A stretch of 64,000 bases of DNA. Source: an uncultured Alphaproteobacteria bacterium. Its GTDB lineage: Bacteria > Pseudomonadota > Alphaproteobacteria > Rhizobiales > Afifellaceae. Below, in pieces: positions 9,535 through 43,229 of this stretch. The stretch lies in assembly GCA_963761005.1 (NCBI GenBank), contig CAVXFK010000002.1, forward strand, positions 31,666 to 95,665. The letters are read 5' to 3'. The notes below the pieces were generated by a model. It worked only from the letters and a program-made list of their open reading frames with translations. It was not told the origin of the DNA and ran no database searches. The translations under genes were made by a program, and so were the position numbers. Every line of letters begins with the position of its first letter. Within the stretch, counting starts at the first letter, position 1.

Positions 9535-10944
9535 ATGGATCATCCGGTATCCGGGCCTCGAACGCGGGGTCGGAAGGCTAAGAAATCGCGGGCCCGCGCG
9601 CCGGCGAGCCGGGCGATACTGGCGCTTAACGCCTTCGATCCACGGCGCTCCAGAGACCTCGACAACTCGGTCGGAGCGCTGCTTGCGCGGCGGATTGGGA
9701 CTTTCGGCCCGATCTCGATGCTGTTCTACGACCGGCCGCTGCATTTCGTGCGGGGCGAGGGCGCGTGCATGTACGACGCCGAGGGGCATGCTTACCTCGA
9801 CGTCTACAACAACGTTCCGTCGGTCGGGCACGCGCATCCGCATGTGGTCGAGGCGATCGCCCGCCAGGCGGCGCTCCTGAACATCCACACCCGCTACCTG
9901 CATGAGACGGTGCTAGCCTATGCGGAGCGCCTTCTCGCGACGCTCCCCGCGCCGATCTCCAACATCGCCTTCACCTGCACGGGGAGCGAAAGCAACGATC
10001 TGGCGCTGCAGGTGGCACGCGCCGCCACCGGCGGAGAGGGCTTCGTCGTCACCGAGAACGCCTATCACGGCAACAGCTCGGCGGTGGTGGAGATATCGCC
10101 GTCGTCGACACCCGGCCGGCCGGCGGCGCGGCACGTGCGTTTCGTCCCGCCGCCCGACCCGCGCCGCGCTTCCGGTAAGAATGTCGGGGTGCGGTTCGCT
10201 GCCGATGTGCGCGCTGCAATCGAGGACCTTGAGGCGCACGGCATTCGCTTCGCCGCGCTGATCTTCGACAGCATCTTCTCCAGCGACGGAGTCTATGCCG
10301 ACCCGCCCGATTTGCTCAGGCTCGCCGTCAATGCCGCGCACAAGGCCGGCGGCCTTGTCATCGCCGACGAGGTGCAGCCGGGCTTCGGCCGCACTGGCAA
10401 GCATATGTGGGGCTTTGAGCGCCACAGAATAGCGCCCGACATGGTCACGATGGGAAAGCCGATGGGGAACGGCTACCCAATCGGCGCGGTCGCCGCGAGC
10501 CCGGCGCTCTTCAAGACGTTCACCGACGGCGTCGGCTATTTCAACACCTTCGGCGGCAGCCCGGTCGCGGCGGCGGCAGGGATGGCGGTGCTTGACGTGT
10601 TGGAAGGGGAGCGGCTCATCGCGAACGCCGGCAAGGTCGGTGCGCACCTTGCGCGGAATCTAGACGCTCTCGCCGCAAGCCATGAAGCGATCGGCGCGGT
10701 GCGCGGCGCGGGGCTCTATCTCGGCGTCGAGTTTGTCTCCGACCGCGAAGCGTGGGCGCCCGACCCGGCGACGGCGCGCCATGTCATCAATTTCCTGCGC
10801 GACAGGCGCATCCTGATCGGCGCCGCCGGGCCATATGGCAACGTGCTGAAGATCCGCCCGCCGCTTTGCTTCAGTACCGGTCAGGCGGATACGCTCGTCA
10901 CCGCGATCGACGCGGCGCTTACTCCGCGGCGACGACGTAGGTAA
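9535..10944 (+). CDS. Class-III (AGXT2L-like) PLP-dependent aminotransferase / putative phospho-lyase
   Basis: PLP-Lys motif VTMGKPMGNGYP, plus YFNTFGGSPV and NVLKIRPPLCF. The start is uncertain: the first ~30 aa are a basic extension not expected from homologues. Confidence 0.88.
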   Translation: MDHPVSGPRTRGRKAKKSRARAPASRAILALNAFDPRRSRDLDNSVGALLARRIGTFGPISMLFYDRPLHFVRGEGACMYDAEGHAYLDVYNNVPSVGHAHPHVVEAIARQAALLNIHTRYLHETVLAYAERLLATLPAPISNIAFTCTGSESNDLALQVARAATGGEGFVVTENAYHGNSSAVVEISPSSTPGRPAARHVRFVPPPDPRRASGKNVGVRFAADVRAAIEDLEAHGIRFAALIFDSIFSSDGVYADPPDLLRLAVNAAHKAGGLVIADEVQPGFGRTGKHMWGFERHRIAPDMVTMGKPMGNGYPIGAVAASPALFKTFTDGVGYFNTFGGSPVAAAAGMAVLDVLEGERLIANAGKVGAHLARNLDALAASHEAIGAVRGAGLYLGVEFVSDREAWAPDPATARHVINFLRDRRILIGAAGPYGNVLKIRPPLCFSTGQADTLVTAIDAALTPRRRRR

Positions 10945-13811: not shown

Positions 13812-13834
13812 GGGGGCAGCGCAGTCTCCACTGC

Positions 13835-13864
13835 GAACCTTCTCCCATGTTTGGGAGAAGGTTC
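13835..13864. terminator. Perfect 13-bp hairpin between convergent genes (bidirectional terminator candidate)
   Basis: GAACCTTCTCCCA-tgtt-TGGGAGAAGGTTC lies between the 13811 stop (+) and the 13872 stop (-). Confidence 0.65.
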
Positions 13865-13871
13865 GGTGTCG

Positions 13872-14639
13872 TCACGCATTCAACGCCTCGAGCGATTCCG
13901 GCAGGATCTGGCCGCCGTCGACGACGATGGTCTGGCCGGTGATGTAGGCGGCCTCCTTTGAAGCGAGGAAGAGTGCGGCGTAGCCGATATCCTCCACCGA
14001 GCCGAGCCGCTTCAGCGGGATCGAGGCGGCCATGGTCTTCAGGTAGTCCGCGCCGAGCCCTTCGAGCCCCTCGGTGACGATGTTGCCGGGCATCACCGCG
14101 TTGACGGTGATCCCGTATTTGGCGAGCTCGATTGCCGCGGTCTTGAGGAACCCGAGCTGGCCCGATTTCGAGGCGCCGTAATGGGTCCAGCCGGGAAAGC
14201 CGGTGATCGGACCGGTGATCGACGAGGTGATGACGATCCGGCCCTCGCCTGACTTCTTGAGATAAGGCACACAGGCTTTGACCGCCAGGAACGTGCCCTT
14301 GAGGTTCGTTGAGAGCACCTCGTCCCACTGTTCAGACGACATGTCCTCGATCTTCGCCTGCGGAAAGATGCCGGCATTGGCGCAGAGTATATCGATGCCG
14401 CCGCTCCGCTCGGCCGCGGTTGCCGCCATCTTCTCCAGCGACACGAGGTCGGTCACGTCAGCGGCGAAGGCGGACGTATCGCCGCCGATCGCCTTCGCCG
14501 AGGCTTCCGCCTGATCGGCGTGACGCGCGACGACCGTCACCTTCGCGCCGTTCTTCGCGAAGACGCGCGCAATCCCCTTGCCGATTCCCTTGCTCGCGCC
14601 GGTGACGACGACGGATTTCCCCTTCACCGATGTCAGCAT
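13872..14639 (-). CDS. SDR-family oxidoreductase (FabG-like)
   Basis: TGASKGIG and YGASK motifs. ATG at 14639 is preceded by GGGAGG. Confidence 0.9.
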   Translation of the reverse strand: MLTSVKGKSVVVTGASKGIGKGIARVFAKNGAKVTVVARHADQAEASAKAIGGDTSAFAADVTDLVSLEKMAATAAERSGGIDILCANAGIFPQAKIEDMSSEQWDEVLSTNLKGTFLAVKACVPYLKKSGEGRIVITSSITGPITGFPGWTHYGASKSGQLGFLKTAAIELAKYGITVNAVMPGNIVTEGLEGLGADYLKTMAASIPLKRLGSVEDIGYAALFLASKEAAYITGQTIVVDGGQILPESLEALNA

Positions 14640-14670
14640 CTGAGCCTCCCTTCGAACTTTGTTGCCGGCG

Positions 14671-15507
14671 TCAGGCCTCGGCTTCGACATCCACGTCGCG
14701 GCTAACACGTGAGCGGGCGCGTACGACGAGCGTCACCAGCGCGTATCCGCCGAGAAGCACGATAACGGCGCCTATCGTCGCGACCGTGCCGAGAACCGGG
14801 ACGCCGGGCGTATAGCCAGCCACCATCTTGGCATAGAGGAATTCCGGCACCGTCGTGTCGGCGCCGTCGGTGTAGAGCGAGAGCGGGAAGTTGCCCCAGG
14901 AGAGCAGGAACGCGAAGAGGCAGCCGGAGAAGATGCCGGGGAAGAGCACCGGCAATGTGATTTCCTTCAACACCTGCCAGCGCGATGCGCCGAGATCGAG
15001 GGCGGCTTCCTCGAGCGCCGGATCGAAGCTGTAGACCTGGATGGAGATGACCAGCGTCACGACCGGCACCACCCAGACAAGATGCGCAAAGACCGCCGAC
15101 TTCCAGGAGAGCGGAAGGCCGAGCGCGCTGAACCATAAGAGCAGCGCCAGCCCAAGCACCGATTGCGGGAAGAAGATCGGGAGCAGCACGAGTTTTTGGT
15201 AAAGCGAGCGGCCGCGCCAGTCGTAGCGCGCAAACGCAAGCGCGCCGAAGAAGGCGATCACGACGGAGACGACGGTGACGCAGAGCGCGATGCTGATCGA
15301 CGCGTTGAGGATCTGCCAGGTCTCGGTCGCGGCGAAAGTCTTCTTCCACCAGGTGATGCCCCAGCGCGGGACGGGAAAGAGGAAATAGCGGCTGTCGGTG
15401 AGCGAGGCGAGGGTGATGGCGGCGCTCGGCAGATAGAGGAAGAGTCCGACCGCGACCGTCCAGGCGATGATGAGCGCGCGCCATAGGCGCTGGCTGGGGC
15501 CGCTCAT
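14671..15507 (-). CDS. ABC transporter permease (PotC-like)
   Basis: Six-TM MalFG-type permease. ATGA overlap with the upstream permease. Confidence 0.9.
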   Translation of the reverse strand: MSGPSQRLWRALIIAWTVAVGLFLYLPSAAITLASLTDSRYFLFPVPRWGITWWKKTFAATETWQILNASISIALCVTVVSVVIAFFGALAFARYDWRGRSLYQKLVLLPIFFPQSVLGLALLLWFSALGLPLSWKSAVFAHLVWVVPVVTLVISIQVYSFDPALEEAALDLGASRWQVLKEITLPVLFPGIFSGCLFAFLLSWGNFPLSLYTDGADTTVPEFLYAKMVAGYTPGVPVLGTVATIGAVIVLLGGYALVTLVVRARSRVSRDVDVEAEA

Positions 15508-16370
15508 GTGGTCTTCCGCCGACCGAGAACGGTATCGAGGTCAAAGCGGCGCAAAACGAGAAGCACGAGGATTCCGACGACCAGCATGAGGAGCACGGCG
15601 AGCGCCGCCCCAAGCGGCCAGTTCTGTGCGTAGGTAAACGCGATCTCGATATCGTGCGTGATCGGAATCACCTTCTGGCCACCGAGCACCTTGGCCTCGG
15701 CGATGGCGCCGACGGCGAGCACGAAGGTAAGCAGGAAGCCTATGACGATGCCCGGCATCGAAAGTGGCAGCTCGACCTCGCGAAACACCTGCCAGCGGCT
15801 TGCGCCGAGGTCGAAGGCGGCTTCGCGCACCTCGTTCGGCACCATCGCCACCCCGAGCGACATCGGAAAGAGCATATAGGGCAGGTAGGTGTAGACCATG
15901 CCGAGGATGATCGCCGGCAGCGTGAACAGGATACTCTCCGGCTCGTAGCCGAAAAGCGCCTTCATGCTGCCGAGCAGGAGGCCGTTCTTGATGAGAAAGA
16001 GCACCCAGCCATAGAGGCGCACATTCTCCGACACGAAAAGCGGGATGACGAAGACCAGCGTCACCGCCATCGACCAGCGGCCGAACACGCGGTTCAGCCC
16101 ATAGGCGACGGGGTAGCAGATCAGGGCGAGGATGATGACGGTCAGCGTGGCAAGTCCGAGCGACCAGAGGAATGAGATGTAATTGGAGCTGGCGAAGATC
16201 GTCTCGTAGTTCTGGAGCGTCGGCGGCTGCCAGATGGAGAAGGTCCGCTCCGGCATGAAGCTGAAGGCAACGACCGCGATCAGCGGCGCGACAAAGCCGG
16301 TCAGGAAGAGCGCATAGAAGGGGAGCGCCGCGCGCGCGCCTGGTCCTAATCGCGCCGTCCCCCCCGCCAT
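15504..16370 (-). CDS. ABC transporter permease (PotB-like)
   Basis: MalFG-type permease containing the EAA-like loop (EAAFDLGASRWQVF). The ATG shares one base with the ATPase stop. Confidence 0.9.
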   Translation of the reverse strand: MAGGTARLGPGARAALPFYALFLTGFVAPLIAVVAFSFMPERTFSIWQPPTLQNYETIFASSNYISFLWSLGLATLTVIILALICYPVAYGLNRVFGRWSMAVTLVFVIPLFVSENVRLYGWVLFLIKNGLLLGSMKALFGYEPESILFTLPAIILGMVYTYLPYMLFPMSLGVAMVPNEVREAAFDLGASRWQVFREVELPLSMPGIVIGFLLTFVLAVGAIAEAKVLGGQKVIPITHDIEIAFTYAQNWPLGAALAVLLMLVVGILVLLVLRRFDLDTVLGRRKTT

Positions 16371-17470
16371 CAATCGCTCACAAGGATGGAGTCGCCCGAA
16401 TCCCAGCCGATCCGCACGACATCGTCGAGCTTTCCGGAATAGGCCTGCTGGCGGAGCTTCTCCACGATGAAGACCTGCTCGCCGACGCGCACCTGATACT
16501 GGATGCGCGAGCCGAGCGCGTATTCGTTGTAGAGGCGGCCTTCGAGGCTATTCTCGGCCTCTCCCGGCTCCGAGAGGAAGCGCACGGACTCCGGCCGGAT
16601 CACGAGGTGGCCGCTGGTCATGCCGTTCGCCGGCTTCGGCCCGTGGAAGGTCGCGTTGAAGTCGGTCGCGGCAAGCTTGCCGTCGGCAGCCACCTTCACC
16701 CGCAGGATGTTCACGTCGCCCATGAACTCGGAGACGAATTTCGTCTCCGGCGCGGTATAGATTTCGTTCGGTGTGCCGACCTGCACGAGCTTGCCGGCGC
16801 GCATCACGCCGATGCGGTCGCTCATCACCATCGCCTCTTCGAGGCTGTGCGTGATGTAGATGAAGGTCTTGTGCGTCTCGCGATGGATGTCCTTCAGCTC
16901 CTTCTCGAGCGTCTTGCGGAGCTTGTAGTCGATCGCAGAGAGCGGCTCGTCGAAGAACAGGATCTCCGGGTCGTAGGCGAGCGCGCGGGCGAGCGCGACG
17001 CGCTGTCGTTCGCCGCCGGAGCATTGCATCACGTTCTTGCCGAAATAGCTCTCCGGGAGCCGCAAGAGCCGCATGAGCTCGAGCGCCCGCGCCTTGCGTT
17101 CCGCAGCGGCGACGCCCTTGATCTTCAGCGGGAAGCCGATGTTCTCGCCGACAGATTTGTGCGGGAAGAGCGCCAGCGACTGGAACACCAGGCAGGTCGG
17201 GCGCCGGTTGGCCGGAACGTCGTTCACCGTCGTCCCGCGGATGCGAATCTCGCCTGAGGTTGGCGTCTCCAGTCCCGCCAGCATCCTGAGCAGCGTGGTC
17301 TTGCCCGAGCCGGACGGCCCGACGATCGTGACGAACTCGCCCTCCGCCACGTCGAGGTCGATCCCATCGACCGCACTGAAGTTTCCGAAGGTCTTCGTCA
17401 GCCCTCGAAGGGTGAGGATGTCCGGGCGCTCCGTCATCGATGCCGAAACCGCAGCCCTCTCGTTCCACAT
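16370..17470 (-). CDS. ABC transporter ATP-binding protein (PotA-like, single NBD plus TOBE-like tail)
   Basis: GPSGSGKTT, CSGGERQRVALARAL and ILFFDEP motifs. An alternative start is at 17437. Confidence 0.93.
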   Translation of the reverse strand: MWNERAAVSASMTERPDILTLRGLTKTFGNFSAVDGIDLDVAEGEFVTIVGPSGSGKTTLLRMLAGLETPTSGEIRIRGTTVNDVPANRRPTCLVFQSLALFPHKSVGENIGFPLKIKGVAAAERKARALELMRLLRLPESYFGKNVMQCSGGERQRVALARALAYDPEILFFDEPLSAIDYKLRKTLEKELKDIHRETHKTFIYITHSLEEAMVMSDRIGVMRAGKLVQVGTPNEIYTAPETKFVSEFMGDVNILRVKVAADGKLAATDFNATFHGPKPANGMTSGHLVIRPESVRFLSEPGEAENSLEGRLYNEYALGSRIQYQVRVGEQVFIVEKLRQQAYSGKLDDVVRIGWDSGDSILVSD

Positions 17471-17477
17471 GGAATTA

Positions 17478-17509
17478 GAAGGCCCTCGTGCCTGCGCACA
17501 AGGGCCTTC
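17478..17509 (-). terminator. Intercistronic stem-loop between the binding-protein and ATPase genes
   Basis: GAAGGCCCTCGTG-cctgcg-CACAAGGGCCTTC, with one mismatch. Partial terminator or mRNA stabiliser candidate. Confidence 0.4.
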
Positions 17510-17538
17510 GGTTGTCTAAAGACCCAAGGACCTAACGG

Positions 17539-18708
17539 TCACCCGCCGGAAGCCTCGCGCTTCGCCGCCGTCATGATGTCGAGCAGCTTGTCGTAGTCCG
17601 GGACAATGTCGTACTCGATCGAGGCCGTCATCTCCTCTTCCAGGCTGTCCCACTGGATCGCGTCGAGCTCGTCCGCGGTGAAGAGGTTGAAGCATTCCGG
17701 ATTGGCCATCTGCGCCACCGGATTGAAGGTGCCCTCGGCGAAGGCGACGACGTGTGCCGTCTTCGGATCCTGCACATATTGCAGGAACTCGACCGCGAGC
17801 GGCGAGAGGTCGGGATTGTTCACGGTCGATGTGACCTCGATCCACGAGACGCCACCCTTGCCGCCGGCCATAGGGCCCTTCTTCGGCGTGATGCCGCGCA
17901 CGTTCTTGTAGCCGTCGGCGCGCGCGGGCGAGGCGCTGTAAGTGCCGCCGGTCATGTGGAAGTCGATCTCGCCGGCCACGAACGCCTGGTTCATGGTGGC
18001 AATGTCGCCGACGAGCTTCGCGCCCTTGAACACGCGCTTCGCGGTGTCGGTGAACTTCGCCACCTGGTCGTCGGTGTGCTCGACGAAGGGGTCGAAGCCC
18101 GAGATGAGACAAATGTCGAAGACGTTCCAGTCGTCCAATTCAAGGATACCGTATTTTCCGTCGTTGGCCGGATCGTTCCAGAGGTCCCACCCCTGGTCCT
18201 CGGCGGTCGCGCGGCTGATCTTGTCGGTGTTGACCACGAACGAGTAGGGGCCGAAGCGCTGGCACATGCCGAGCAGCTCCTTGCCGTCGTCGCTCATCGC
18301 CCAGTGATAGGGCGGCGCGAACATCGGCAGCATCTTCGAGAAATAGGGCTCCATCTTCGCGCGGTCGAGCGGCTTGATCAGCCCCTCCGGATACATGACC
18401 TTCCGCGCCCAGGGATTGTTCACATTGATCAGGTCCCACACATTGATCTCGCCGGCTCTGAGCCGGTTGATCATCGTCGGGTCGTTGGTGAGCGACTCGG
18501 CCTTGACGGTCGCGCTCTTCATGGCGCGGAAGGGATCGAGCACCTGAGCTGAGTTGTAGCCCTCCCAGCAGAGGATGTTCAGCTCCTTCTCGCGCGCCGC
18601 AAGCGCGCTGCCGGCCGACCCGAAGGCGCCCGTCGCAAAGGCGGCCGCCATGGCCGTCGACCGCTCCATGAAAGTGCGCCGCGTGATCCCCTGTCTTGTC
18701 ATTGTCAT
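17539..18708 (-). CDS. ABC transporter periplasmic substrate-binding protein (PotD/PotF-like), Tat signal
   Basis: Twin-arginine signal ITRRTFMERSTAMAAAFATGAFGSAGSALA. Family-1 solute-binding protein; its size and position head the Pot-like operon. Confidence 0.9.
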   Translation of the reverse strand: MTMTRQGITRRTFMERSTAMAAAFATGAFGSAGSALAAREKELNILCWEGYNSAQVLDPFRAMKSATVKAESLTNDPTMINRLRAGEINVWDLINVNNPWARKVMYPEGLIKPLDRAKMEPYFSKMLPMFAPPYHWAMSDDGKELLGMCQRFGPYSFVVNTDKISRATAEDQGWDLWNDPANDGKYGILELDDWNVFDICLISGFDPFVEHTDDQVAKFTDTAKRVFKGAKLVGDIATMNQAFVAGEIDFHMTGGTYSASPARADGYKNVRGITPKKGPMAGGKGGVSWIEVTSTVNNPDLSPLAVEFLQYVQDPKTAHVVAFAEGTFNPVAQMANPECFNLFTADELDAIQWDSLEEEMTASIEYDIVPDYDKLLDIMTAAKREASGG

Positions 18709-18879
18709 CTCCCGCTTCCGCTGACGTTGCGCCGCATTTTCGCTCTTCGGCAGAAAAGCAAAATCCTTGCCAGAAGTGATGCATGGCGGGCCGCGTGCGG
18801 CAATAGCGACAGCCGACGTTATCTTTGCATTTGCGGGCGCTTGCAGCCTGGGCGTGCGCCGCCAAGCCGTCCTGGACCG

Positions 18880-19575
18880 TCAGTTGAGCCGCATCATCGT
18901 CTTCAGCTCGCTCGACGACATCACCTGGCAGTAGATCATGTTGATGATCTCAAGCTCCTTGTGATGCAGCTCGTCGGACCCGGCGGCGCAGCAATCCTCG
19001 ACGACGATCACGTTGTAGCTCTCGTCGGCGAGGCTCCGGACCGTGGAGGAGACGCACTGGTCGGTGAAGACGCCACAGCACACGACGTTGCGGATACCGA
19101 GATTATGGAGCAGCAGGCGGAGATTGCTTCCCGTCAGCGCGCTGTCGGTCATCTTCTCGACGACGATCTCGTCGCCGACCGGCTTCAGTTCGTCGACGAT
19201 CTGCGAGTCCCAGTCGTCGCGCGGCAGGAGCAGGTCGTTCCATCCCGGCTTTCGATGGCTCAACGAGCGCTCGCGCCCGTGGCGGGTCTGGCTCGCGATC
19301 CGGGCGAAAAGGCACGCAACGCCCTTCGCGCGGAAGCGGGTCAAAAGATCGCGCGTGTTTGGAACGAGCAGCGTCTCCATGCGCTCAAAGAAGGGCGTCC
19401 AGAGATCGTACGTCTCCTGTTCCTTGGGCGGGAGCGAGCCGCGGTCGGGCCGCTTGCGATAGGTGTTCTGGACGTCGATCACGAGGAGTGCCGTCTCCTC
19501 GGGCTTCAGCACAAAATCGGGGGGCTCTGGGGCGTCGCGGTAGTAGATCGAGCGATAGGCGGTCTTCCAGCTCAT
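18880..19575 (-). CDS. Isochorismatase-family cysteine hydrolase
   Basis: LLVIDVQN (Asp), VEKMTDSA (Lys) and FTDQCV (Cys) form the triad. The upstream part of the 491-aa ORF overlaps the dehydratase small subunit and is junk. Confidence 0.85.
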   Translation of the reverse strand: MSWKTAYRSIYYRDAPEPPDFVLKPEETALLVIDVQNTYRKRPDRGSLPPKEQETYDLWTPFFERMETLLVPNTRDLLTRFRAKGVACLFARIASQTRHGRERSLSHRKPGWNDLLLPRDDWDSQIVDELKPVGDEIVVEKMTDSALTGSNLRLLLHNLGIRNVVCCGVFTDQCVSSTVRSLADESYNVIVVEDCCAAGSDELHHKELEIINMIYCQVMSSSELKTMMRLN

Positions 19576-19604
19576 CGATTCCTGCGTCCCCGACCTGACC
19601 GGGA

Positions 19605-20033
19605 TCAAAAGCGGTAGGTAAAAAGGCCGCGCCGCTCGTAGACAGCGGCCGCCTCTTCGACGAAGCGCGCCATCAGCTCCGCCTTGTGCTCCTCTCGCAA
19701 TTTTCGGGCCGCTTCGAGGAGCGGCGCCTTGTCCTTGGCGCGGCCCGGGCGGAGCAGCTCGTAGACAGCCATGATGAAATCCTGCGGCACGTCGACCAGC
19801 TCCGCCGCGCGCTCGAAGTTCGCCGCGAGCATCGGCCGGCCAGCAGCGCGCGCGACCTCCGCCTGCATGCGGAGTGCGGCGGGCGTGATGCGAAGGTCTT
19901 CGAGCGCCACCTCGCCGGCAAGGAGCTTGTCGAGCGTGATCTCGTCGAGCGCCTTGCCGCGCCGGCCCTGGATCAGCTCCGGACGCTTCTCGGCGAGCGG
20001 GTAGTCGGCGACGCCTAGCGTGCGCTCGCCCAT
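19605..20033 (-). CDS. Diol/glycerol dehydratase small (gamma) subunit (PduE/DhaB3-like)
   Basis: DYPLAEKRPE, ITLDKLLAGEV, LRITPAALRMQA, NFERAAEL and LRPGR match the small-subunit pattern. It lacks the N-terminal extension. Confidence 0.9.
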   Translation of the reverse strand: MGERTLGVADYPLAEKRPELIQGRRGKALDEITLDKLLAGEVALEDLRITPAALRMQAEVARAAGRPMLAANFERAAELVDVPQDFIMAVYELLRPGRAKDKAPLLEAARKLREEHKAELMARFVEEAAAVYERRGLFTYRF

Positions 20034-22294
20034 TTCGGCGCTCCCGCATAGCTGACTGCGATCTCTTCCGGCGAGGCGCCGTCGACGACGAGCGACGTCT
20101 CGATCGCATAAAGAAGCGCCACGCGCGCGTGGTAGCGCGCGCCCATCGCCTCGCCGCGCGTCGGCACGACGACCGGCTCAGGCAACTTCCCGCGTGCATA
20201 GTGCGCCGCGTTCTTCCCGAGCGCGCGATAGTGCGCGAGCGTCGTGATCGGCGCGTTCGAGAAGAGCTCGAGATTGTTATGCGGGAGGCGGTCCTTCTGA
20301 TGGATGACCGCGGTGCCCTTCGCCTGGATGCCGATGCCGACGCCGGAGCCCGCAAGCCGCGCCGCGCTCAGGCCAAGGAACGAAGTGTCGGCGGTATGCA
20401 GCATGCGCACGATCCGCGCGGCAGCGCCGCCTTCCTCGATCCCTTCGACGAGTCCCTGCAGGAGCTCGGCGAGCGGAATGCCGCCGAGCGTGCGGAAGAA
20501 CTTGATGCCGAAGGCAGGCGAGACGCCGATCACTACTTCCGTCGGCGAGGTTCCGACCTTCGCGGGTCCCATCGTTCTGAAAGTGATGTCGGACGCGGCG
20601 TAACGCGCGAACTCTTCCTCCTGCGAGAGCACCGTCTCGCGGTCGAGCACGTCACGGATCGCGTGGATCTCCTGGCGCCGCGCCTCGGTGAGACGGTAGC
20701 CGGTACCGGGGCCGAGGTAGTCGTTCGGGTCGTTGACGGCGGAGAGGACTTTTCCGTCGCGGATGACCGCCGACGTCTGCAGATAGTCACCGGAGATTCT
20801 GAGCTTCACGAGCCAGAGCAGACTTTCCGCCTCCTCCTGGAAGCCACGCTTGGCAAGTGCCTTGATGACGTCGACGACGTTGATGCAGCGCGCCTTGATC
20901 TCCTCGGAGATCAGCGAGACATCGCGCGGCCGGTAGCTTTCGGTCTCATCCGAGCCTGAGGCGGTGAGAACGCTCGCCTTCATCGCCGCGGTCGGCACTC
21001 CGAGCGCCAACTCCTCGAACACCGCGGAGAGCGCGTCGAGCGCCCGGCGCCTCAGATCGAGGGCGCGATCTTCTAGGATCGGGGTCAGCCCTCCGTCCGC
21101 CTCGAAGTCGCGCTGCAGGACCAGAAAATCCTCCAGCTCCTCGCCGTTCAAAAGCGAGGGGTTGAAGGAGTTGTCGTATTTCAGGATCGATCCGAAGCCG
21201 GAGCAGATCAGGTCGGAGCCGGCGATCAGAAAAGGGAGGATCTTCGCACCGACTCGAATCTCCGACTCCGTCGAGCGCGCGTCATTGCCGCTTGCGCATT
21301 CGAGATCGAGCCAGACGGCGAGAAGGTTCTCCGCCATCAGCTCGCGTATGCCGCCGGGCACGGTCGCCGTCAGCGGGGCGCCATCGACGCCGCCGTTCTG
21401 CGTTCCCTGCACGCCCATGCCGCGCTGCAGGCAGAGGCAGCGTGCTTCCAGGTAGAGCAGCGACTTCGACTCATGGAAGCCCATGAGTAGCTCCGAGCCG
21501 GCGCCCGAGGTGCAGCGCATCTTGATGCCGCGTGAGGCGTAGGCGGAGGCGAGGAAGGCTTTCGACCACGGCGTGTCGTCGCCGTCGATGAAGGTGCGCT
21601 CCGTGCCGTAGACGGACACCGTCTCGGCGTAGGAGGTGAAGCCGGCCATGCCGATCTGCAGTTCCTCCGCCTCCTCGCTCGAGCATTGGAACAACGTTCC
21701 GGCGCGGCCGACCGCTGCGCCGACGCAGCAGGCAAGCGCGTTCGACCAAGCATTCCGCGAGACGCGCATCGTCGTCTCGATCTCGTCGAACCCGAGCGCC
21801 ACCGCGATCGCCGCGTCGGCCGCAAGCTGCAGCGGATCGTCCTTGGCGTTCGTCACATGCGCCTGGTTGCCGGGAGTCTTGCGCGCCCGCATTTTCGAAT
21901 AAGCGAAGGCAATCTCCATCGCCGAGAGCTCGGCGACGACCTCCGCCAGCTTCGCCGGCGTCATGCCGTGGGCCAAGCGCACGAGCTCGGTGCGCGGCAC
22001 GTTCATGTCGACCAGCATGCGCGCGATCTGAGGCGAGGGGATCGCCATCGCCTCCGGCGCGACCTTGGGGTCGATGTGGTAGCGCGCGATGAAGACATCG
22101 ATCATGTCGAACTCGGCGGCAGCAACGCCGTCCATCGCGGCGATGCGGCCGTCCTCGATGGCGATTCCGGGCTTTGGATCGTGCGGGCTGTTGAACGCCG
22201 CGAAGCCGTTGTCGGCATCCTCCACGGCGAACATGTCGAGCCGGAGCGGCCGCTCGTCCCAATCCGCAAACCGTCGCCAGCGATTGGCCGACAT
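20015..22294 (-). CDS. Fused large (alpha) plus medium (beta) subunit of AdoCbl-dependent diol/glycerol dehydratase
   Basis: The PduC-like part carries GNQAHVTN, GFDEIETT, GVQGTQNG, LDLECASGND, SDLICSGF. The PduD-like C-terminus carries VVIGVSPAFG, GSGVGIGIQAKGTAVIHQ, NLELFSNAP. ATG 22294 is preceded by GGAGAG. Confidence 0.9.
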   Translation of the reverse strand: MSANRWRRFADWDERPLRLDMFAVEDADNGFAAFNSPHDPKPGIAIEDGRIAAMDGVAAAEFDMIDVFIARYHIDPKVAPEAMAIPSPQIARMLVDMNVPRTELVRLAHGMTPAKLAEVVAELSAMEIAFAYSKMRARKTPGNQAHVTNAKDDPLQLAADAAIAVALGFDEIETTMRVSRNAWSNALACCVGAAVGRAGTLFQCSSEEAEELQIGMAGFTSYAETVSVYGTERTFIDGDDTPWSKAFLASAYASRGIKMRCTSGAGSELLMGFHESKSLLYLEARCLCLQRGMGVQGTQNGGVDGAPLTATVPGGIRELMAENLLAVWLDLECASGNDARSTESEIRVGAKILPFLIAGSDLICSGFGSILKYDNSFNPSLLNGEELEDFLVLQRDFEADGGLTPILEDRALDLRRRALDALSAVFEELALGVPTAAMKASVLTASGSDETESYRPRDVSLISEEIKARCINVVDVIKALAKRGFQEEAESLLWLVKLRISGDYLQTSAVIRDGKVLSAVNDPNDYLGPGTGYRLTEARRQEIHAIRDVLDRETVLSQEEEFARYAASDITFRTMGPAKVGTSPTEVVIGVSPAFGIKFFRTLGGIPLAELLQGLVEGIEEGGAAARIVRMLHTADTSFLGLSAARLAGSGVGIGIQAKGTAVIHQKDRLPHNNLELFSNAPITTLAHYRALGKNAAHYARGKLPEPVVVPTRGEAMGARYHARVALLYAIETSLVVDGASPEEIAVSYAGAPKWASAR

Positions 22295-22582
22295 GAGCGA
22301 CTCTCCAACCACCCGGGTTCTCAGGAGACTCCCCTGACCTTGCGGGCGATGCTTCCCTCGGTCAAGCACCGACTGTTTTGCGCTCGGTCGGCAGTCAGCC
22401 GCCGCGCGCTTCGGCACAGCTTCCATTGAACAAGCGGCAAACCAACGCGCTTCGATGAAAGCGCCTGTGTGAATGCAGTGGCGCAGGGCCAGTACCAACT
22501 CGCCGGCGTTCCATTGTGACCTCGAACTTGACGGCTCACGGGCCCCCCAATAGTCTCAGTTAGTGAAATGTTGTCCCAGTGA

Positions 22583-24115
22583 ATGGGATTAGAGATGACA
22601 CGGGGCGGGGACGCGCTTTTAGAGGTCCGTGGGCTTTGCAAGCGTTTCGGTGGGACCGAGGCGCTGCGCAATGTCGACTTCTCCGTCCTGCCCGGCGAGA
22701 TCCATGCACTCCTCGGTGCGAACGGCGCCGGCAAGTCGACTCTGATCAAGGTGCTCGCCGGCGTCCACACCGCCGATGCGGGCGAGATCAGGATCGCCGG
22801 CCGGCCGCGCGACCAGCAACTGGTGCGCCGCCACATCGCCTTCGTCCACCAGGATCTCGGCCTGATCGAGACGTTCAGCGTCGGCGAGAACATGGCCATG
22901 GGCTATGGGTATCCGCGGCGGTGGAAGTTCATCGACTGGAAGGCGGTGAACCGCGTCGCGGCGGAGGCTCTCGAGTTCCTCGGTTCGCCGCTGCCGCTCG
23001 ACCGGCCGGTCAGCGAGCTGACGCGCGCCGAGAAATCGATCGTGGCGATCGCCCGCGCGCTCGTCGAAAAGGTCGAGCTTCTGGTGCTTGACGAGCCGAC
23101 GGCTAGCTTGCCTGAAGCTGACGTCGGCCGGCTTTTCGACGTGCTCTTCAGGGTCCGCGAACGGAACGCCAGCGTCATCTACGTCACGCACCGCCTCGAC
23201 GAGGTCTTCCGGATCGCCGACGCGGTGACGGTGCTCCGCGACGGGCGCACGGTCGCGGTCTATCGGCCTGTCACGCTGTCGCCTGAGCAGCTCGTGACCG
23301 ACATCGTCGGTCGCGCGCCGGTGGCGCTCCTGATGTCGCGCAAGAAGCGGCGGGGCGTGCCTGCGCTCGAGGTGGAGGGGCTTCGCGCCGGCACGGTGGG
23401 GCCGATCGACTTTCATGTCGGCGTCGGCGAGATCGTCGGGTTGGCGGGGCTGAGAGGGCAGGGGCACGAGGTCGTAGGGCGCGCGATCGCCGGTGTGCTC
23501 AACCGCGACGCCGGCGTCGTCCGCATCAACGGTGTCGAGGCGAAGATCGACGCGCCGGCGGCCGCGATTGCGGCCGGGCTCGGCTTCGCGACGGGAAAGC
23601 GCGCCGAGGAGGCGCTCGCCGGCACCTTGACCGTGAAGGAGAACCTCTTCCTCAACCCGTTGAACTTCGGCCACAAATCGTTCCGGCTGAAGAGCCGCAG
23701 CAAGGAGCGGACGGCCGCGCGGGATATCCTGGCGAAATTCGACGTGCGCCCGGTCGATCCGGAGCGCGACATCTCCACCCTTTCGGGCGGCAACCAGCAG
23801 AAGGTCGTACTCGCCCGCTGGGCCGGTCGCCGCTACAAGCTCCTCATCCTCGAAGAGCCGACGATCGGCGTCGACTTCGGCGCGAAGTCGGAAATCTACC
23901 GGATGATGGCCGAGGACGCCGCGGCCGGCACTTCGTCGATCATCATCTCCTCGGACTTGGACGAGCTCGCGCAGATCTGCGACCGCGTGCTTGCCTTCAG
24001 CCGCGGGCGGATCGTGGCGGAGATATCGCGTCCTGATCTGAGCGTTGCCGCGCTGACCCACGCCGTGAGTGGGGCGGCGGCGGTCGCCAAGACACAGAGC
24101 GCGGCGCTGCAATGA
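22583..24115 (+). CDS. Sugar (CUT2-type) ABC transporter ATP-binding protein, tandem NBD
   Basis: GANGAGKST, LLVLDEPT, LSGGNQQKV and LLILEEPT motifs. ATGA overlap with the permease. Confidence 0.92.
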   Translation: MGLEMTRGGDALLEVRGLCKRFGGTEALRNVDFSVLPGEIHALLGANGAGKSTLIKVLAGVHTADAGEIRIAGRPRDQQLVRRHIAFVHQDLGLIETFSVGENMAMGYGYPRRWKFIDWKAVNRVAAEALEFLGSPLPLDRPVSELTRAEKSIVAIARALVEKVELLVLDEPTASLPEADVGRLFDVLFRVRERNASVIYVTHRLDEVFRIADAVTVLRDGRTVAVYRPVTLSPEQLVTDIVGRAPVALLMSRKKRRGVPALEVEGLRAGTVGPIDFHVGVGEIVGLAGLRGQGHEVVGRAIAGVLNRDAGVVRINGVEAKIDAPAAAIAAGLGFATGKRAEEALAGTLTVKENLFLNPLNFGHKSFRLKSRSKERTAARDILAKFDVRPVDPERDISTLSGGNQQKVVLARWAGRRYKLLILEEPTIGVDFGAKSEIYRMMAEDAAAGTSSIIISSDLDELAQICDRVLAFSRGRIVAEISRPDLSVAALTHAVSGAAAVAKTQSAALQ

Positions 24116-25168
24116 CCGCCAGCCGCAACTGCGACCTGAAGGACGAGCGGCCGGTCGAGATGCCGCCGATCGCGCCGCCGCACGAGCCACCGGCGACGCC
24201 GGAACGACGCGGTGCGAAGGCGTTCGTCCTCCACGTTCTTTCCGTCCACGGGCTTCTCGTCTTCGGCTTCGCGCTCGTCATCGTCTTCTCGTTCCTGTTG
24301 CCGCAGACCTTCACCGGCACCCAGACTTTCCGCGCGATCCTCGGGAACAACACGACCGTGGCGCTTCTCGCCATGGCCGAGATGATCGTGATCTCGACCG
24401 GCAACTACGATCTCTCGATCGCCTACAATGTCGGGCTCATGCACATCACGGCGATGGGCCTTCTGACGGACCTCTATCTGCCGTGGCCCTTCGTCGTGAT
24501 CGCGACGATCGGGATCGGCGGCCTGATCGGCTGGATCAACGGCGTCGCTGGTCGAATACGCCAAGATCGACTCCTTCATCGCCACGCTCGGCGTTGGCAC
24601 CATCCTCTATGGTGTCGGTTCCTGGTACACGAACGGCACGCAGCTCGTCGGCAACGTTCCGATCGCCTTCGCCGACCTGAACGATGCCAAGCTCTTCTCG
24701 ATTCCGCTCCCGACCTACATGGTCGCAGCGGTCGCGATCCTCGCCTGGGTCTGCCTCGAGCATCTGCCGGTCGGGCGCCATCTCTATGCCATCGGCTCGA
24801 ACCGCAGGGCGGCGGAGCTGACCGGCGTTCCCGCGCGGCGGCTGGTGATGGGCGCCTTCGTGTGCAGCGGCCTCGTCGTCGGATTGGCGGGCGTGCTCCT
24901 CGCCGCGCGGCTGCAGGTGGCGCAAAGCTCGGTCGGTCCGGAATTTCTGCTGCCGGCGTTCGTCGGCGCGCTGCTCGGCGCGACGACCGTCAGGCCCGGT
25001 CGCGTCAATGCCTGGGGCACGATCATCGCTGTGCTCGTGCTCGCCGTCGGCATCGCCGGGCTGCAGCAGCTTGGGAACTCGTTCTTCGCCGAGCCGATCT
25101 TCCAGGGCGCCGCCCTGATCATCTCCGTCGGCTTGGCAGGCTACGCCGCTCGCCGGCGCAAGCGGTGA
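24112..25168 (+). pseudogene. Sugar ABC transporter permease (RbsC/AraH-like) interrupted by a frameshift at about 24547
   Basis: The N-terminal half reads in frame 1 up to GLIGWINGV. It continues in frame 2 as LVEYAKIDSFIATLGVGTILYG...HLYAIGSNRRAAELTG to stop 25168. Confidence 0.8.
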
Positions 25169-25295
25169 AGCAAGAAGAGATGGAGAGAACCGTCTTCACA
25201 AGTGTTTGGGTTGAGGAAGGGAGGAATTCGCATGAACAGGTTTACGTAAGCATCTGCTCTCGGGTGCCGTCGCCGCGCTTGCGGCCACCACGCTC

Positions 25296-26348
25296 ATGAG
25301 CGCCGCCTTCGCGGACGAGGTTCTCGACCGCATGAAGGCGGACATCGCCCGCTCGGTCGGTCCGCAGACGACGTGGGACGGCCCGACCACCGGACCGAAG
25401 GCCGCCAAGGACAAGTCCATCGTCTACGTGTCGCTCACCCAGAACTCGAGCGGCAACGCCGACTCCGCGCGCGGCGCGGAGGAAGCGTCGAAGGTGCTCG
25501 GCTGGAAGTTCACGCTGATGGACGGCAAGGGCACCGCGACCGGCGGTGCCGACGCGCTCGCCCAGGCGATCGCGCTGAAGCCCGACGCGATCATCCTCGG
25601 CTCGGTCTCGATCGAGAACAACAAGAGCCTGATCCAGCAGGCGAACGACGCCGGCATCGTCGTCATCGGCTGGCACGCCACCGACAAGCCCGGCCCGGTC
25701 GCCGATCCCAAGGTCTTCACCAATGTCGGCACCGATCCCTGGGATATCGCCTACACCGCCGGCGAATACGCCGTCGTCGATTCCAACGGGACGGCGCAGG
25801 CGGAAGTCATCAGCGACCGGCAATATCCGATCGTGGTGACGAAGAGCGACGGCATCGAGAAGGCCATCGCCGAGTGCAGCGGCTGCAAGCTTCTCTCCGA
25901 AGACAACGCGCCTTTCGGCGAGGTTCCGCAGCGCACGCCCGGGCTGATCAGCTCGCTGCTCCAGCGCTTTGGCAGCAATCTCGGCTACATCCTCACGTTC
26001 AATGAGGTGTATTTCGATTTTGCCGTGCCGACGCTGAAGGCCGCCGGCATCGATCCCAGCGCGCCACCGCATCTGGTCGCCGCCGGTGATGGCAGCGAAT
26101 CGGCCTATCAGCGCATTCGGAACGGCCAGTATCAGGTCGCGACCGTCCCCGAGCCGGCGGTGATGCACGGCTGGCAACTGGTCGACGAGTTGAACCGCGC
26201 CTTCAACGGGCAGCCTCCTTCGGGCTTCGTGACCAAGGTCCACCTCGTGACCAAGGACAACGTCGACGCCGACGGTGGCGACAAGAACCGCTTCGAGCCG
26301 TCGAACAATTATCGCGAGCACTACAAAGAGATCTGGGGCGTGCAATAG
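25296..26348 (+). CDS. Sugar ABC transporter periplasmic binding protein (the signal-peptide region appears frameshifted; see findings)
   Basis: Type-I periplasmic binding fold (IVYVSLTQNSSGN..., IVVIGWHA). The ORF from ATG 25296 lacks an export signal. An RBS plus ATG at 25232 in another frame supplies MNRF..RKHLLSGAVAALAATTL. Confidence 0.82.
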   Translation: MSAAFADEVLDRMKADIARSVGPQTTWDGPTTGPKAAKDKSIVYVSLTQNSSGNADSARGAEEASKVLGWKFTLMDGKGTATGGADALAQAIALKPDAIILGSVSIENNKSLIQQANDAGIVVIGWHATDKPGPVADPKVFTNVGTDPWDIAYTAGEYAVVDSNGTAQAEVISDRQYPIVVTKSDGIEKAIAECSGCKLLSEDNAPFGEVPQRTPGLISSLLQRFGSNLGYILTFNEVYFDFAVPTLKAAGIDPSAPPHLVAAGDGSESAYQRIRNGQYQVATVPEPAVMHGWQLVDELNRAFNGQPPSGFVTKVHLVTKDNVDADGGDKNRFEPSNNYREHYKEIWGVQ

Positions 26349-26422
26349 GCGAGAGCTTCAGAAGCGCCGGCGCGGGCTTGCCTGCGCCGGCACGATCCTT
26401 AGAAAACATGGACATGTGATCC

Positions 26423-27289
26423 TTGACCCGGGCAAAGCGAACGGCGAGTCTGGCGGCGAAACCTGCATCGCTTGCTGCGCCTTTGCCCAAATTGCCCAGA
26501 CGAAAGTCGGTCGAGCCCGCTCCTGAAGCGCCGATTGGAACGCTTGAGCGGGGCCTCTCCATCCTGCAGTTCTTCAAGCGCTCGCCGGAGGCGACGATTC
26601 CGGAGGTTGCAGTTGCCGTTGGCCTCAGCCGCTCGACCACCTACCGGATCGCCGAGCGGTTGCACGAGCTCGGATTCCTGGAGGTCAACAGCACGACCAA
26701 CCGCTGGCGGCTCGGGCGCGAGGCGGTGCAGCTCGGCGTCGTGGCGCTCCAGTCGACCGACGTGATGCAGGTTGCGCCGGAGCTCTTGCGCCTCCTGCTC
26801 GAAATGGCGGGCGAGGCCGTCAACCTCGCGGTGTTCGACGCCGACAGCATGGTGCTGCTCTACCGTGAGCAGGGTCCGCAGTCGGTGACCATCAGCTCGC
26901 GGCTCGGCTCGCACCGCCCGATGCACGCGAGCGCCGTCGGCAAGGCGTTTCTCTCGGCGATGGACGACAGGGAGCGCCGCGTGCTTCTCGGTCGCGTCTC
27001 TCTCAAGCGATACACCGACAGCACGATCACCAGCGCCGTCGCGCTCGAACGCGAGATCGCCGAGATCAAGAGTCGCGGCTATGCGATCGATCACAGCGAA
27101 TTCGAGGCGACGCTTGCGTGCACCGCGGCGGCGGTCTTCGACCATCGGCGACAGCCGGTCGCGGCGATCAGCGTATCGGGACCGGCGGAGCGTGTTTTGC
27201 CGCAGATCGATCGCATCGGCGGCCTGGTCACGGAGACAGCCAAGGCGATCTCCGAGCGGCTCGGCTTCGTGCGCGGCACGTTGCCTTGA
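26423..27289 (+). CDS. IclR-family transcriptional regulator
   Basis: Winged HTH (IPEVAVAVGLSRSTTYRIAERL) plus an IclR effector domain (GYAIDHSEFEATLACTAAAVFD). Confidence 0.88.
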   Translation: MTRAKRTASLAAKPASLAAPLPKLPRRKSVEPAPEAPIGTLERGLSILQFFKRSPEATIPEVAVAVGLSRSTTYRIAERLHELGFLEVNSTTNRWRLGREAVQLGVVALQSTDVMQVAPELLRLLLEMAGEAVNLAVFDADSMVLLYREQGPQSVTISSRLGSHRPMHASAVGKAFLSAMDDRERRVLLGRVSLKRYTDSTITSAVALEREIAEIKSRGYAIDHSEFEATLACTAAAVFDHRRQPVAAISVSGPAERVLPQIDRIGGLVTETAKAISERLGFVRGTLP

Positions 27290-27313
27290 CGCTCCGCCTG
27301 GCGCTGTCTACCG

Positions 27314-27349
27314 TCTCATTTGATGAGAGCGTGTCCCATTCAATGGGAC
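27314..27349. promoter_or_regulatory. Two adjacent palindromes upstream of kdgD-like gene (operator candidates)
   Basis: TCTCAT-ttg-ATGAGA (27314-27328) and GTCCCATT-c-AATGGGAC (27333-27349), directly downstream of iclR. Confidence 0.45.
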
Positions 27350-27376
27350 ATCCTCTCAAGCCAGCGGATTGAGCAC

Positions 27377-28339
27377 GTGACGCCAGCCCGAGAAGTTCTG
27401 AAGCGGCGGATATCGGAAGGCATCCTGGCCTTCCCGGCGACGCCCTTCGATGAGCGGGGGGCCGTGGACGCCGAGAAGTTTCAAAGTCATCTGGTCGAGC
27501 TTGCGAGGCATCGCCCCTGTGCGATCGTTGCGGCAGGCGGAGCTGGCGAGCTTTTCTCGCTGTCGCTGGCGGAGCACGAGGTCCTGATCCGCGCCGCGGT
27601 CGCAGCAACGCCAGAGATTCCGGTCGTTGCCGGGGTTGGGTTCGGCGTTGCGATCGCTTGCGACATGGCGCGGAGCGCGGAGGAGTCGGGCGCCGCGGCG
27701 GTTCTTCTTTTTCCGCCCTATCTCGTCGGCTCCGAACAGGAGGGGCTTGCGGCCTACGTCGAGGCGGTCTGCCGGTCGACCTCGCTTGCCGTCATCGTCT
27801 ACAGCCGGGGGAACGGTGTTCTTGCGCCGGGTTCCGCGCTTCGCCTTGCCGAGACCTGCCCGAACCTGATCGCGCTCAAGGACGGCACCGGCGACTTCGA
27901 GGCGCTGACGATCCTGAAACAGCAGGCCGGCGACCGGCTGGTGCTGATCAACGGCGTGCCCACCGCCGAGATGATCGTGCCGCAATGCTTCGCGATCGGC
28001 ATCCGCAGCTACACCTCGGCAGTCTTCACGTTTCTTCCGGGGCTTGCCACGCGATACTTCCAGGCCGTCCGCGATAACGACCGAGACACATTCGAGCGCA
28101 TTCTCCGCGATTTCTACGTACCGCTCAGTGCGATCCGCAGCCGCAAGAAAGGCTACGCTGTCTCAATCATGAAGGCAGGGCTCAGAATCGTCGGCCGGTC
28201 GGCCGGCCGCGTGCGTCCGCCACTTGTCGACCTCTCCGCAGGCGAGGAAGCCGAGCTTGCAGCGCTCATCGAGCGAATCCTTGCGGAAGCCAGCGAGGCG
28301 CCGCGCTACGGCGCCTCTGCCGCCGGGGCGAGTGGGTGA
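27377..28339 (+). CDS. kdgD: 5-dehydro-4-deoxyglucarate dehydratase-like (DapA/NAL superfamily)
   Basis: AAGGAGELFSL and LKDGTGD (Schiff-base Lys) match KdgD. The GTG start at 27377 aligns with homologue N-termini (..GILAFPATPF). Confidence 0.85.
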   Translation: MTPAREVLKRRISEGILAFPATPFDERGAVDAEKFQSHLVELARHRPCAIVAAGGAGELFSLSLAEHEVLIRAAVAATPEIPVVAGVGFGVAIACDMARSAEESGAAAVLLFPPYLVGSEQEGLAAYVEAVCRSTSLAVIVYSRGNGVLAPGSALRLAETCPNLIALKDGTGDFEALTILKQQAGDRLVLINGVPTAEMIVPQCFAIGIRSYTSAVFTFLPGLATRYFQAVRDNDRDTFERILRDFYVPLSAIRSRKKGYAVSIMKAGLRIVGRSAGRVRPPLVDLSAGEEAELAALIERILAEASEAPRYGASAAGASG

Positions 28340-28342
28340 TGC

Positions 28343-29311: not shown

Positions 29312-29321
29312 TGGCTGAGCC

Positions 29322-43215: not shown

Positions 43216-43229
43216 GCGAGCAACTCGAA

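Follow-up and report, generated by a model that had tools for sequence, protein, structure and literature searches.

We describe a gene for a fused alpha-beta dehydratase of the diol/glycerol family, together with its gene neighbourhood, in 64,000 nucleotides of DNA (hereafter the window) from an uncultured alphaproteobacterium of the Afifellaceae (Rhizobiales; GenBank assembly GCA_963761005.1, contig CAVXFK010000002.1, forward-strand positions 31,666 to 95,665). A preliminary description had read the gene as the large and medium subunits of the enzyme joined in a single polypeptide of 759 aa and followed by a separate small-subunit gene. All coordinates are window positions, and the features are collected in Table 1.

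The open reading frame (ORF) runs from an ATG at 22294 to a TAG at 20015-20017 (759 codons plus stop), with no internal stop in the ORF list or the translation; GGAGAG lies 7 nt 5' of the ATG, and the window has a G+C content of approximately 64-67%. The longest possible ORF would begin at a TTG at 22498, and the ATG was preferred because it gives the length common to all homologues. With Pfam, Dehydratase_LU (PF02286) spans aa 5-553 (552-position model, 709 bits, E 3.9e-213) and Dehydratase_MU (PF02288) lies at aa 593-703 (93.7 bits against a cut-off of 27, E 8.2e-27). The NCBIfam large-subunit model NF011979 scored 837 bits (cut-off 788), and the medium-subunit model, aligned over aa 546-748, scored 206 bits; this falls short of its whole-protein cut-off (248) because beta has a trimmed N terminus. 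The best PDB matches were five engineered Klebsiella pneumoniae fusion constructs (E ~1e-208, aa 5-745), headed by the alpha-beta fusion 9vi2 (aa 5-745, E 2.9e-208), and chains A and B of 1dio and 1iwp were matched separately (1iwp_B/1dio_B at E 1e-42). The uninterrupted frame, the two sets of profiles, and the solved structures agree on one large-plus-medium-subunit chain, as first described; all ten motifs that had been cited for it were found in the translation, and a profile check with Dehydratase_LU, _MU, and _SU matched all three families, the C-terminal part being a medium-subunit domain. These results support reading the ORF as an in-frame fusion of a PduC/PddA/DhaB1-type large subunit with a medium-subunit core, the short gamma subunit being encoded separately.

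The connector between the two parts is short. Residue 43 of 1dio_B (Klebsiella oxytoca PddB) aligns with window residue 567 onward, residue 16 of 1iwp_B (K. pneumoniae DhaB2) aligns with window residue 573 onward, and the NCBIfam medium-subunit alignment begins at aa 546, with the alpha part ending near aa 555. Beta homology begins well before the Pfam MU domain, and the connector therefore comprises only about 12-18 residues; the linker of about 40 aa given earlier had been counted up to the Pfam MU core and is to be corrected. The flexible beta N terminus is trimmed off, with this connector in its place. Orthologues (n = 74) were called from approximately 80 alphaproteobacterial species genomes, their sources including cultured Bauldia litoralis, Dongia spp., and Kaustia mangrovi. 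The junction is in frame in 74/74 and near-constant in length, yet it is the least conserved segment. The pairwise ratio of nonsynonymous to synonymous substitution rates (dN/dS) against five orthologues was 0.11-0.23 over the whole gene; by segment, it was 0.09-0.17 in alpha, 0.15-0.27 in beta, and, more relaxed, 0.15-0.81 for residues 556-592 at the junction. An independent contig from a metagenome (99.66% identity over 22 kb) codes for the identical protein.

The downstream ORF is a Dehydratase_SU (PF02287) protein (157.7 bits, E 2.2e-46). Its ATG lies within the last codons of the fusion gene and is preceded by GGGAG; the 19-nt overlap noticed earlier reads ATGGGCGAGCGCACGCTAG in the sequence, and gamma appears to be translationally coupled to the fusion gene. 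The gamma subunit aligns from its own residue 5 to positions 37-166 of the 173-position PduE model and beta begins at PddB residue 43, which bears out the earlier statement that both lack Pdu-type N-terminal extensions. Such extensions are found on PduD and PduE, and that of PduD serves as an encapsulation peptide.

Searching 5.8 billion proteins yielded 7,978 relatives. In the best 120 of the 90%-identity clusters, both domains were found throughout, identity to the window protein was 77-100%, and lengths were mostly 754-760 aa (a few up to 830 aa). Sources in this set include Bauldia, Kaustia, Methyloceanibacter, Hyphomicrobium, Rhodoligotrophos, and many metagenome-assembled genomes (MAGs), and the NCBI name for such relatives is "propanediol/glycerol family dehydratase large subunit." Scanning one genome per species gave 80 loci at ≥75% identity, all near end-to-end matches, with cultured B. 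litoralis and four Dongia species among them; the window belongs to an uncultured hyphomicrobial lineage, closest to which are MAGs carrying the labels uncultured Alphaproteobacteria and Propylenella. Clustering at 50% separated at least three full-length fused lineages (P0121, 759 aa; P0122, 749 aa; P0128, 829 aa), and in the P0122 and P0128 lineages gamma lies upstream of alpha-beta, with different neighbours. Some database "fusions" are artefactual: in P0127 the last 170 residues are of low complexity and out of frame, and at locus L086 (9354-12013) the large-subunit gene is split, its second part reading through the medium into the small subunit. Length alone is no proof of a true fusion.

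Natural alpha-beta fusions have been reported from Mesorhizobium, Mycobacterium, and Hyphomicrobium (Liu 2010, as cited in PMC7674605 and PMC4777399). According to a 2020 review (PMC7674605, citing Liu 2010), the enzyme of M. loti and M. smegmatis is an alpha-gamma heterodimer whose alpha subunit contains beta-like sequence; Martins-Pinheiro 2016 (PMC4777399) adds Hyphomicrobium and reports that reactivase genes are absent in all three genera. A literature search on the function of MSMEG_0497, MSMEG_1547, and MSMEG_6321 returned annotations and expression values only. The tentative earlier mention of fused forms in Actinobacteria and Rhizobiales is right and documented (PMC7674605, PMC4777399, PMC6542942), and the interest of the fusion had been rated too high: the architecture has been published since 2010, is common among soil and marine bacteria, and is routinely annotated. 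The window gene is an additional member of this common architecture, and the fusion itself is not new.

For the active site, residues were mapped by PDB alignment onto K. pneumoniae numbering (K. oxytoca numbering + 1). The Ca2+ ligands Gln144, Glu173, Glu224, Gln299, and Ser365 (K. oxytoca Gln141, Glu170, Glu221, Gln296, and Ser362) and the catalytic His146 and Asp338 (K. oxytoca His143 and Asp335) are kept, as is Phe377, and each of these residues is invariant in 74/74 orthologues. The ligand and catalytic roles are known from the structural literature on these dehydratases. That the Ca2+/substrate ligands and the catalytic His and Asp were all present had already been read from the motifs, and all proved identical in the alignment; two non-canonical substrate-pocket residues were missed in that reading. 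Asp304 and Ala339 occur in 74/74 orthologues at positions where all characterised propanediol and glycerol enzymes have Ser301 and Gln336, and the loop after the pocket position changes from SCIG to DGAP. Three pocket classes were seen in the best 150 of the 50%-identity cluster representatives: 5 had the canonical Ser/Gln pair, 20 had Ser/Ala, and 24 had Asp with Ala, Thr, Ser, or Asn, Asp at the 301 position never being paired with Gln in this set. Mutants S301A and Q336A are reported to be resistant to inactivation by glycerol and to take longer 1,2-diols as substrates. The roles of Ser301 and Asp335 have been reviewed (PMC7674605): the C3-OH of glycerol points to, and hydrogen-bonds with, Ser301 in the pro-S conformation, which is linked to suicide inactivation. 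Contigs of an actinobacterial Asp-type fused lineage were too short or frameshifted to reveal its gene context. An AlphaFold2 model of the fusion (19-sequence alignment) gave a mean predicted local distance difference test (pLDDT) score of 50.8 and a predicted template-modelling (pTM) score of 0.36 and was too poor to use; the alignment was too shallow (77-91% identity).

Classical enzymes are encoded beside the reactivase genes ddrAB or gdrAB (dhaFG) (PMC4777399). A DdrA probe (validated against 2D0O chain A, full length, 1252 bits) gave no tblastn match at E ≤ 1 in the window and 87 loci (1.56 Mb), the search being confined to these loci, and Pfam scans of the window ORFs found no DDR domain.

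The fusion gene is the first of eight co-directional genes with overlaps or short gaps, followed by those for gamma, a cysteine hydrolase, an ATP-binding cassette (ABC) importer, and a short-chain dehydrogenase/reductase (SDR) (Table 1).

Table 1. Dehydratase gene, its parts and pocket codons, and neighbouring genes (window positions)
Feature	Position	Strand	Basis or remark
Fused alpha-beta diol/glycerol-family dehydratase gene, 759 aa	20015..22294	minus	Pfam, NCBIfam, PDB matches
Alpha part of fusion, ~aa 1-555	20630-22294	minus	
Connector of fusion, ~aa 556-572	20579-20629	minus	
Beta part of fusion, ~aa 573-759	20015-20578	minus	
Asp304 codon, GAT	21383..21385	minus	Position of K. oxytoca alpha-Ser301
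Ala339 codon, GCG	21278..21280	minus	Position of K. oxytoca alpha-Gln336; adjoins catalytic Asp338
Small (gamma) subunit, 142 aa, DhaB3-like short form	19605..20033	minus	Pfam, NCBIfam small-subunit models
Isochorismatase-family (cysteine hydrolase) protein, 231 aa	18880..19575	minus	Pfam Isochorismatase
PotABCD-like ABC importer	14671..18708	minus	Pfam; PotA/PotB/PotC best NCBIfam similarities, all below cut-off
ABC solute-binding protein	17539-18708	minus	Pfam
ABC ATPase with TOBE_2 domain	16370-17470	minus	Pfam
ABC permeases	15504-16373 and 14671-15507	minus	Pfam
SDR, last gene of co-directional run	13872..14639	minus	PDB 6ci8, 6ci9
APH-family kinase, 333 aa	12810..13811	plus	Pfam APH; PDB 6ef6
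Class-III aminotransferase-fold, amino-alcohol O-phosphate phospho-lyase homologue	9535..10944	plus	PDB 5g4i, 6tor

The hydrolase has intact Asp-Lys-Cys motifs (IDVQN, VEKMTDSA, and TDQCV) and is weakly similar to RutB, biuret hydrolase, and amidases. The SDR is orthologous to the RMM (S)-1-amino-2-propanol dehydrogenase of M. smegmatis, its best PDB matches being 6ci8 and 6ci9 (300 bits versus approximately 170 bits for generic FabG), and the kinase to the RMM (S)-1-amino-2-propanol kinase of the same species (best PDB match 6ef6, 300 bits; next match, 59 bits). The phospho-lyase homologue matched 5g4i, a bacterial "phospholyase" (364 bits), and 6tor, human ethanolamine-phosphate phospho-lyase (346 bits), with transaminases at ≤163 bits. 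This amino-alcohol catabolic cassette around the gene had gone unnoticed in the preliminary description, which had the identity of the enzyme right. ORFs of the fetched loci were clustered, and neighbours were counted in the 44 complete related loci with ≥9 kb on both sides: gamma was present in 44/44, the hydrolase in 39/44, the SDR in 41/44, and the kinase in 34/44, with the kinase and the phospho-lyase-like gene together in 23/44. Some transporter was found in 42/44 loci (ABC-type binding protein, 27; APC permease, 16), bacterial microcompartment (BMC) shell genes in 12/44, and aldehyde dehydrogenase in 7/44. Genes for BMC-H, BMC-T, and aldehyde dehydrogenase were not found in the 64-kb window (tblastn with related-locus sequences, for shell proteins of PF00936; BMC-P was not examined), nor were pdu shell, PduGH, PduL, PduP, and PduQ genes (tblastn and Pfam scans of window ORFs).

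The RMM2 locus type combines RMM genes with diol dehydratase homologues (Axen 2014, PMC4207490); in actinobacterial RMM2 loci the dehydratase lies on the opposite strand, and its participation was doubted for that reason (Axen 2014, PMC4207490). By its gene content, the cassette is an RMM2-like module, here without shell genes found in the window, and the dehydratase is probably cotranscribed with the aminopropanol-dehydrogenase orthologue. No promoter-like site was found at 13000-23000, terminator-like sites were not above shuffled expectation, and an Rfam scan covering the entire window gave no matches and thus no cobalamin riboswitch. The divergent genes that lie upstream at 22583-30557 (for a sugar-type ABC transporter, an IclR regulator, and a dihydrodipicolinate synthase [DHDPS]-like protein) were considered as part of the system and rejected because they are not conserved beside the dehydratase in other genomes.

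The cassette varies among related loci. A 516-aa APC-family amino-acid permease replaces the ABC importer, at the same position after the hydrolase gene, in L017-L029, L043, L045, L053, L060, L064, L067, and L073; the transporter appears to be swapped inside an otherwise conserved cassette, both types being predicted amine or amino-acid carriers. BMC-H, BMC-T, and aldehyde dehydrogenase genes follow the cassette in Kaustia, Bauldia, Aestuariivirga, and others, giving a full RMM2-like locus (shell genes downstream in L002, L009, L012, L014, L040, L042, L051, L053, and L057). Dongia/Rhodospirillaceae loci carry an extra class-I glutamine amidotransferase/Peptidase_C26 (PuuD-like) gene upstream of the transporter gene; a PuuD-like gene lies beside or instead of the hydrolase in L026, L033, L041, L046, L058, L059, L063-L065, L067, L071, L072, and L076 and hints at a gamma-glutamylated amine substrate. 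In Methyloceanibacter/Hyphomicrobium loci, a gene for a 643-aa acetyl/propionyl-CoA synthetase-like protein (ACAS_N + AMP-binding) lies beside the phospho-lyase gene, upstream of the dehydratase (L015-L017, L019, L021, L029, and L038), which fits propionate or propionaldehyde as pathway product. In the 99.66%-identical contig in ENA, the kinase ORF is only 115-143 aa (L001, 18484-18915) versus an intact 333 aa in the window, likely an indel or assembly error in that contig.

Three regions elsewhere in the window were recorded, all on the plus strand. The 863-aa ORF at 48639-51230 has two ABC_tran domains and a BPD_transp_2 permease domain (aa 586-849) and is either a fusion of ATPase and permease in an importer of sugar type or a gene call that merged separate genes. 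An X-Pro dipeptidyl-peptidase catalytic domain (Peptidase_S15, 229 aa) at 45479-46168 and its C-terminal domain (PepX_C, 319 aa) on the next ORF, at 46293-47252, may represent a split or frameshifted gene. A histidinol-dehydrogenase-family protein at 42897-44537 (546 aa) has approximately 120 extra residues before the Pfam domain, which may reflect a wrongly called start or a genuine extension.

The fusion gene very probably encodes a functional, naturally fused enzyme of the diol-dehydratase family that depends on adenosylcobalamin (AdoCbl), and its sequence shows that it belongs to the EC 4.2.1.28 / 4.2.1.30 family as an enzyme class. Because the known enzymes are alpha2beta2gamma2 in 1DIO and 1IWP and engineered Klebsiella fusions have been solved, an (alpha-beta)2 gamma2 assembly with the gamma subunit would be expected by analogy. 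Its chemistry can be proposed because the residues concerned are conserved: AdoCbl would sit between the alpha barrel and the beta domain, its Co-C bond would undergo homolysis, a hydrogen atom would be abstracted from C1 of a vicinal diol that the five ligands named above hold on Ca2+, radical migration of the OH group from C2 to C1 would be assisted by His146 and Asp338, and loss of water would yield the aldehyde. Beta is the subunit prone to dissociate (PMC7674605), and the fusion most plausibly serves to tether this most easily lost subunit and to secure 1:1 stoichiometry; the fused enzyme may have no need for a reactivase. The product would most likely be propionaldehyde or a close analogue made from an imported C3 diol, with 1,2-propanediol as the default candidate, and the kinase and phospho-lyase route would yield the same aldehyde from 1-amino-2-propanol.

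That the true substrate is one of the pair 1,2-propanediol and glycerol we regard as about as likely as not. Several points weigh against the reading of a conventional diol dehydratase: the changes from Ser301 to Asp and from Gln336 to Ala make either substrate an assumption; the cassette transporters are of amine or amino-acid type and not obviously diol carriers; no reactivase gene was found nearby in the loci searched, though classical enzymes need one; and the mycobacterial fused forms are biochemically uncharacterised according to a 2019 review (PMC6542942).

It is possible, though we put it forward tentatively, that Asp304 and Ala339 are an adaptation to working without a reactivase, in an otherwise ordinary propanediol/glycerol dehydratase of aerobes lacking DdrAB, PduGH, or GdrAB; Ala at 336 and the loss of Ser301 would then lower mechanism-based inactivation. 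Consistent with this, no DdrA homologue was found in the 1.56 Mb of window and related loci, the absence of the genes from Mesorhizobium, Mycobacterium, and Hyphomicrobium is in print (PMC4777399), K. oxytoca active-site mutants are inactivated more slowly and are less active (Yamanishi 2012, as cited in PMC7674605), and one engineered alpha-beta fusion was slower to inactivate in cell lysate (PMC7674605). Asp is not Ala, however, and at 301 a stronger acceptor of hydrogen bonds might promote, not disfavour, the inactivating conformation of glycerol; moreover, loci alone were searched, and a reactivase gene could lie in another part of the genome.

Altered specificity is rather unlikely. The Asp304/Ala339 clade would then be no propanediol or glycerol dehydratase but would act on a 1,2-diol with a larger or positively charged C3 group, such as 3-amino-1,2-propanediol or a similar amino-diol, which the isochorismatase-like amidase would set free and the amine-type transporter would take up. 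Every orthologue has Asp in place of the residue to which the glycerol C3-OH hydrogen-bonds, with Ala at 336, Asp and Gln do not co-occur among the three pocket classes of the best 150 representatives, and the cassette joins PotABCD-like or APC transporters and a cysteine-hydrolase amidase to three amino-alcohol enzymes, all of which is in keeping with such a substrate. Against this, Asp could equally hydrogen-bond a hydroxyl or just tune stereoselectivity, there is no established natural source of such amino-diols, and nothing was found on searching the literature for B12 dehydratases with amino-diol substrates. Drawn together, these ideas would make the fused clade a distinct B12-dependent eliminase for its own C3-substituted (possibly cationic, amino) diol, linked to aminoacetone and aminopropanol metabolism and working reactivase-free in aerobes through the remodelled pocket and tethered beta, a proposal that we consider doubtful.

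It is highly improbable that the enzyme acts directly on 1-amino-2-propanol, as an ethanolamine-ammonia-lyase-like B12 shortcut parallel to the kinase/phospho-lyase route: the linkage with aminopropanol genes is tight, and B12-dependent and B12-independent isofunctional routes often coexist, but all five Ca2+ ligands that bind the two hydroxyls are intact, and the changed residues face C3, not C1/C2, where the amine would sit. A sequencing or assembly artefact, in which a lost stop or a frameshift has merged two genes, is excluded: some metagenomic relatives are indeed frameshifted (e.g., the C-terminal part of P0127 and locus L086), but the same in-frame junction and length recur in all orthologues of independent genomes, cultured strains included, the junction is under purifying-to-relaxed selection without frame-breaking indels, and the independent contig carries the identical protein.

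Given its publication history and wide distribution, the fusion adds little. Residual interest attaches to the invariant pocket substitutions, to the reactivase not found nearby, and to how tightly the gene is coupled to the aminopropanol module. For glycerol dehydratase in industrial use, reactivation is a main concern, and here are fused enzymes in aerobes without a nearby reactivase gene; the natural substitutions sit at the position that binds the glycerol C3-OH in the suicide-inactivation conformation and at its neighbour; and co-directional linkage with aminopropanol genes bears on whether the RMM2 "diol dehydratase" serves amino-alcohol catabolism.

K. oxytoca PddABC (1DIO) and K. pneumoniae DhaB123 (1IWP) have the same three domains as the window enzyme and are homologous to it over their full length (alpha, 548 and 542 bits; beta, approximately 147-150 bits), with identical Ca2+ ligands and catalytic His, Asp, and Glu. 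They differ in consisting of three polypeptides, where the window has a fusion, and in their Ser301/Gln336 pocket, where the window has Asp304/Ala339; PddB and PddC also have N-terminal extensions, which their window counterparts lack. Salmonella/Citrobacter PduCDE belong to the same enzyme family and reaction type, whereas in the window the alpha chain stands before beta, whose N terminus is not free, and gamma has the short form.

Among RMM2 microcompartment loci (Aut, aminoacetone/1-amino-2-propanol pathway), the window shares the combination of a dehydratase with an SDR, an APH-family kinase, a class-III aminotransferase-fold enzyme, and a permease, and differs in that no shell or aldehyde-dehydrogenase genes were found in it. 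In contrast to actinobacterial RMM2 loci, the window and most related loci have the dehydratase running in the same direction as the SDR, and this speaks for a functional connection.

The natural fusions of Mesorhizobium loti, M. smegmatis (MSMEG_0497, MSMEG_1547, and MSMEG_6321), and Hyphomicrobium (77% identity between the window protein and Hyphomicrobium sp. proteins) share with the window the large-plus-medium-subunit ORF, the separate small subunit, the lack of an adjacent reactivase, and aerobic alphaproteobacterial or actinobacterial hosts; known natural fused lineages vary relative to the window in having gamma upstream (P0122 and P0128 types) and in Ser or Asp at position 301. Engineered K. 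pneumoniae fusions (PDB 9VI2, 9VII, and 9VIA, among others; Wang 2009, Gibson 2013, and Maddock 2017, as cited in PMC7674605) have the same alpha-then-beta order and approximately 754 aa. Unlike the window protein, they have canonical pocket residues, linkers that are artificial or derived from stop-codon read-through, and the full beta N terminus, which is trimmed in the window. Engineered Klebsiella fusions showed activity comparable to that of the wild type (PMC7674605), and the alpha-beta single-chain topology is therefore compatible with activity.

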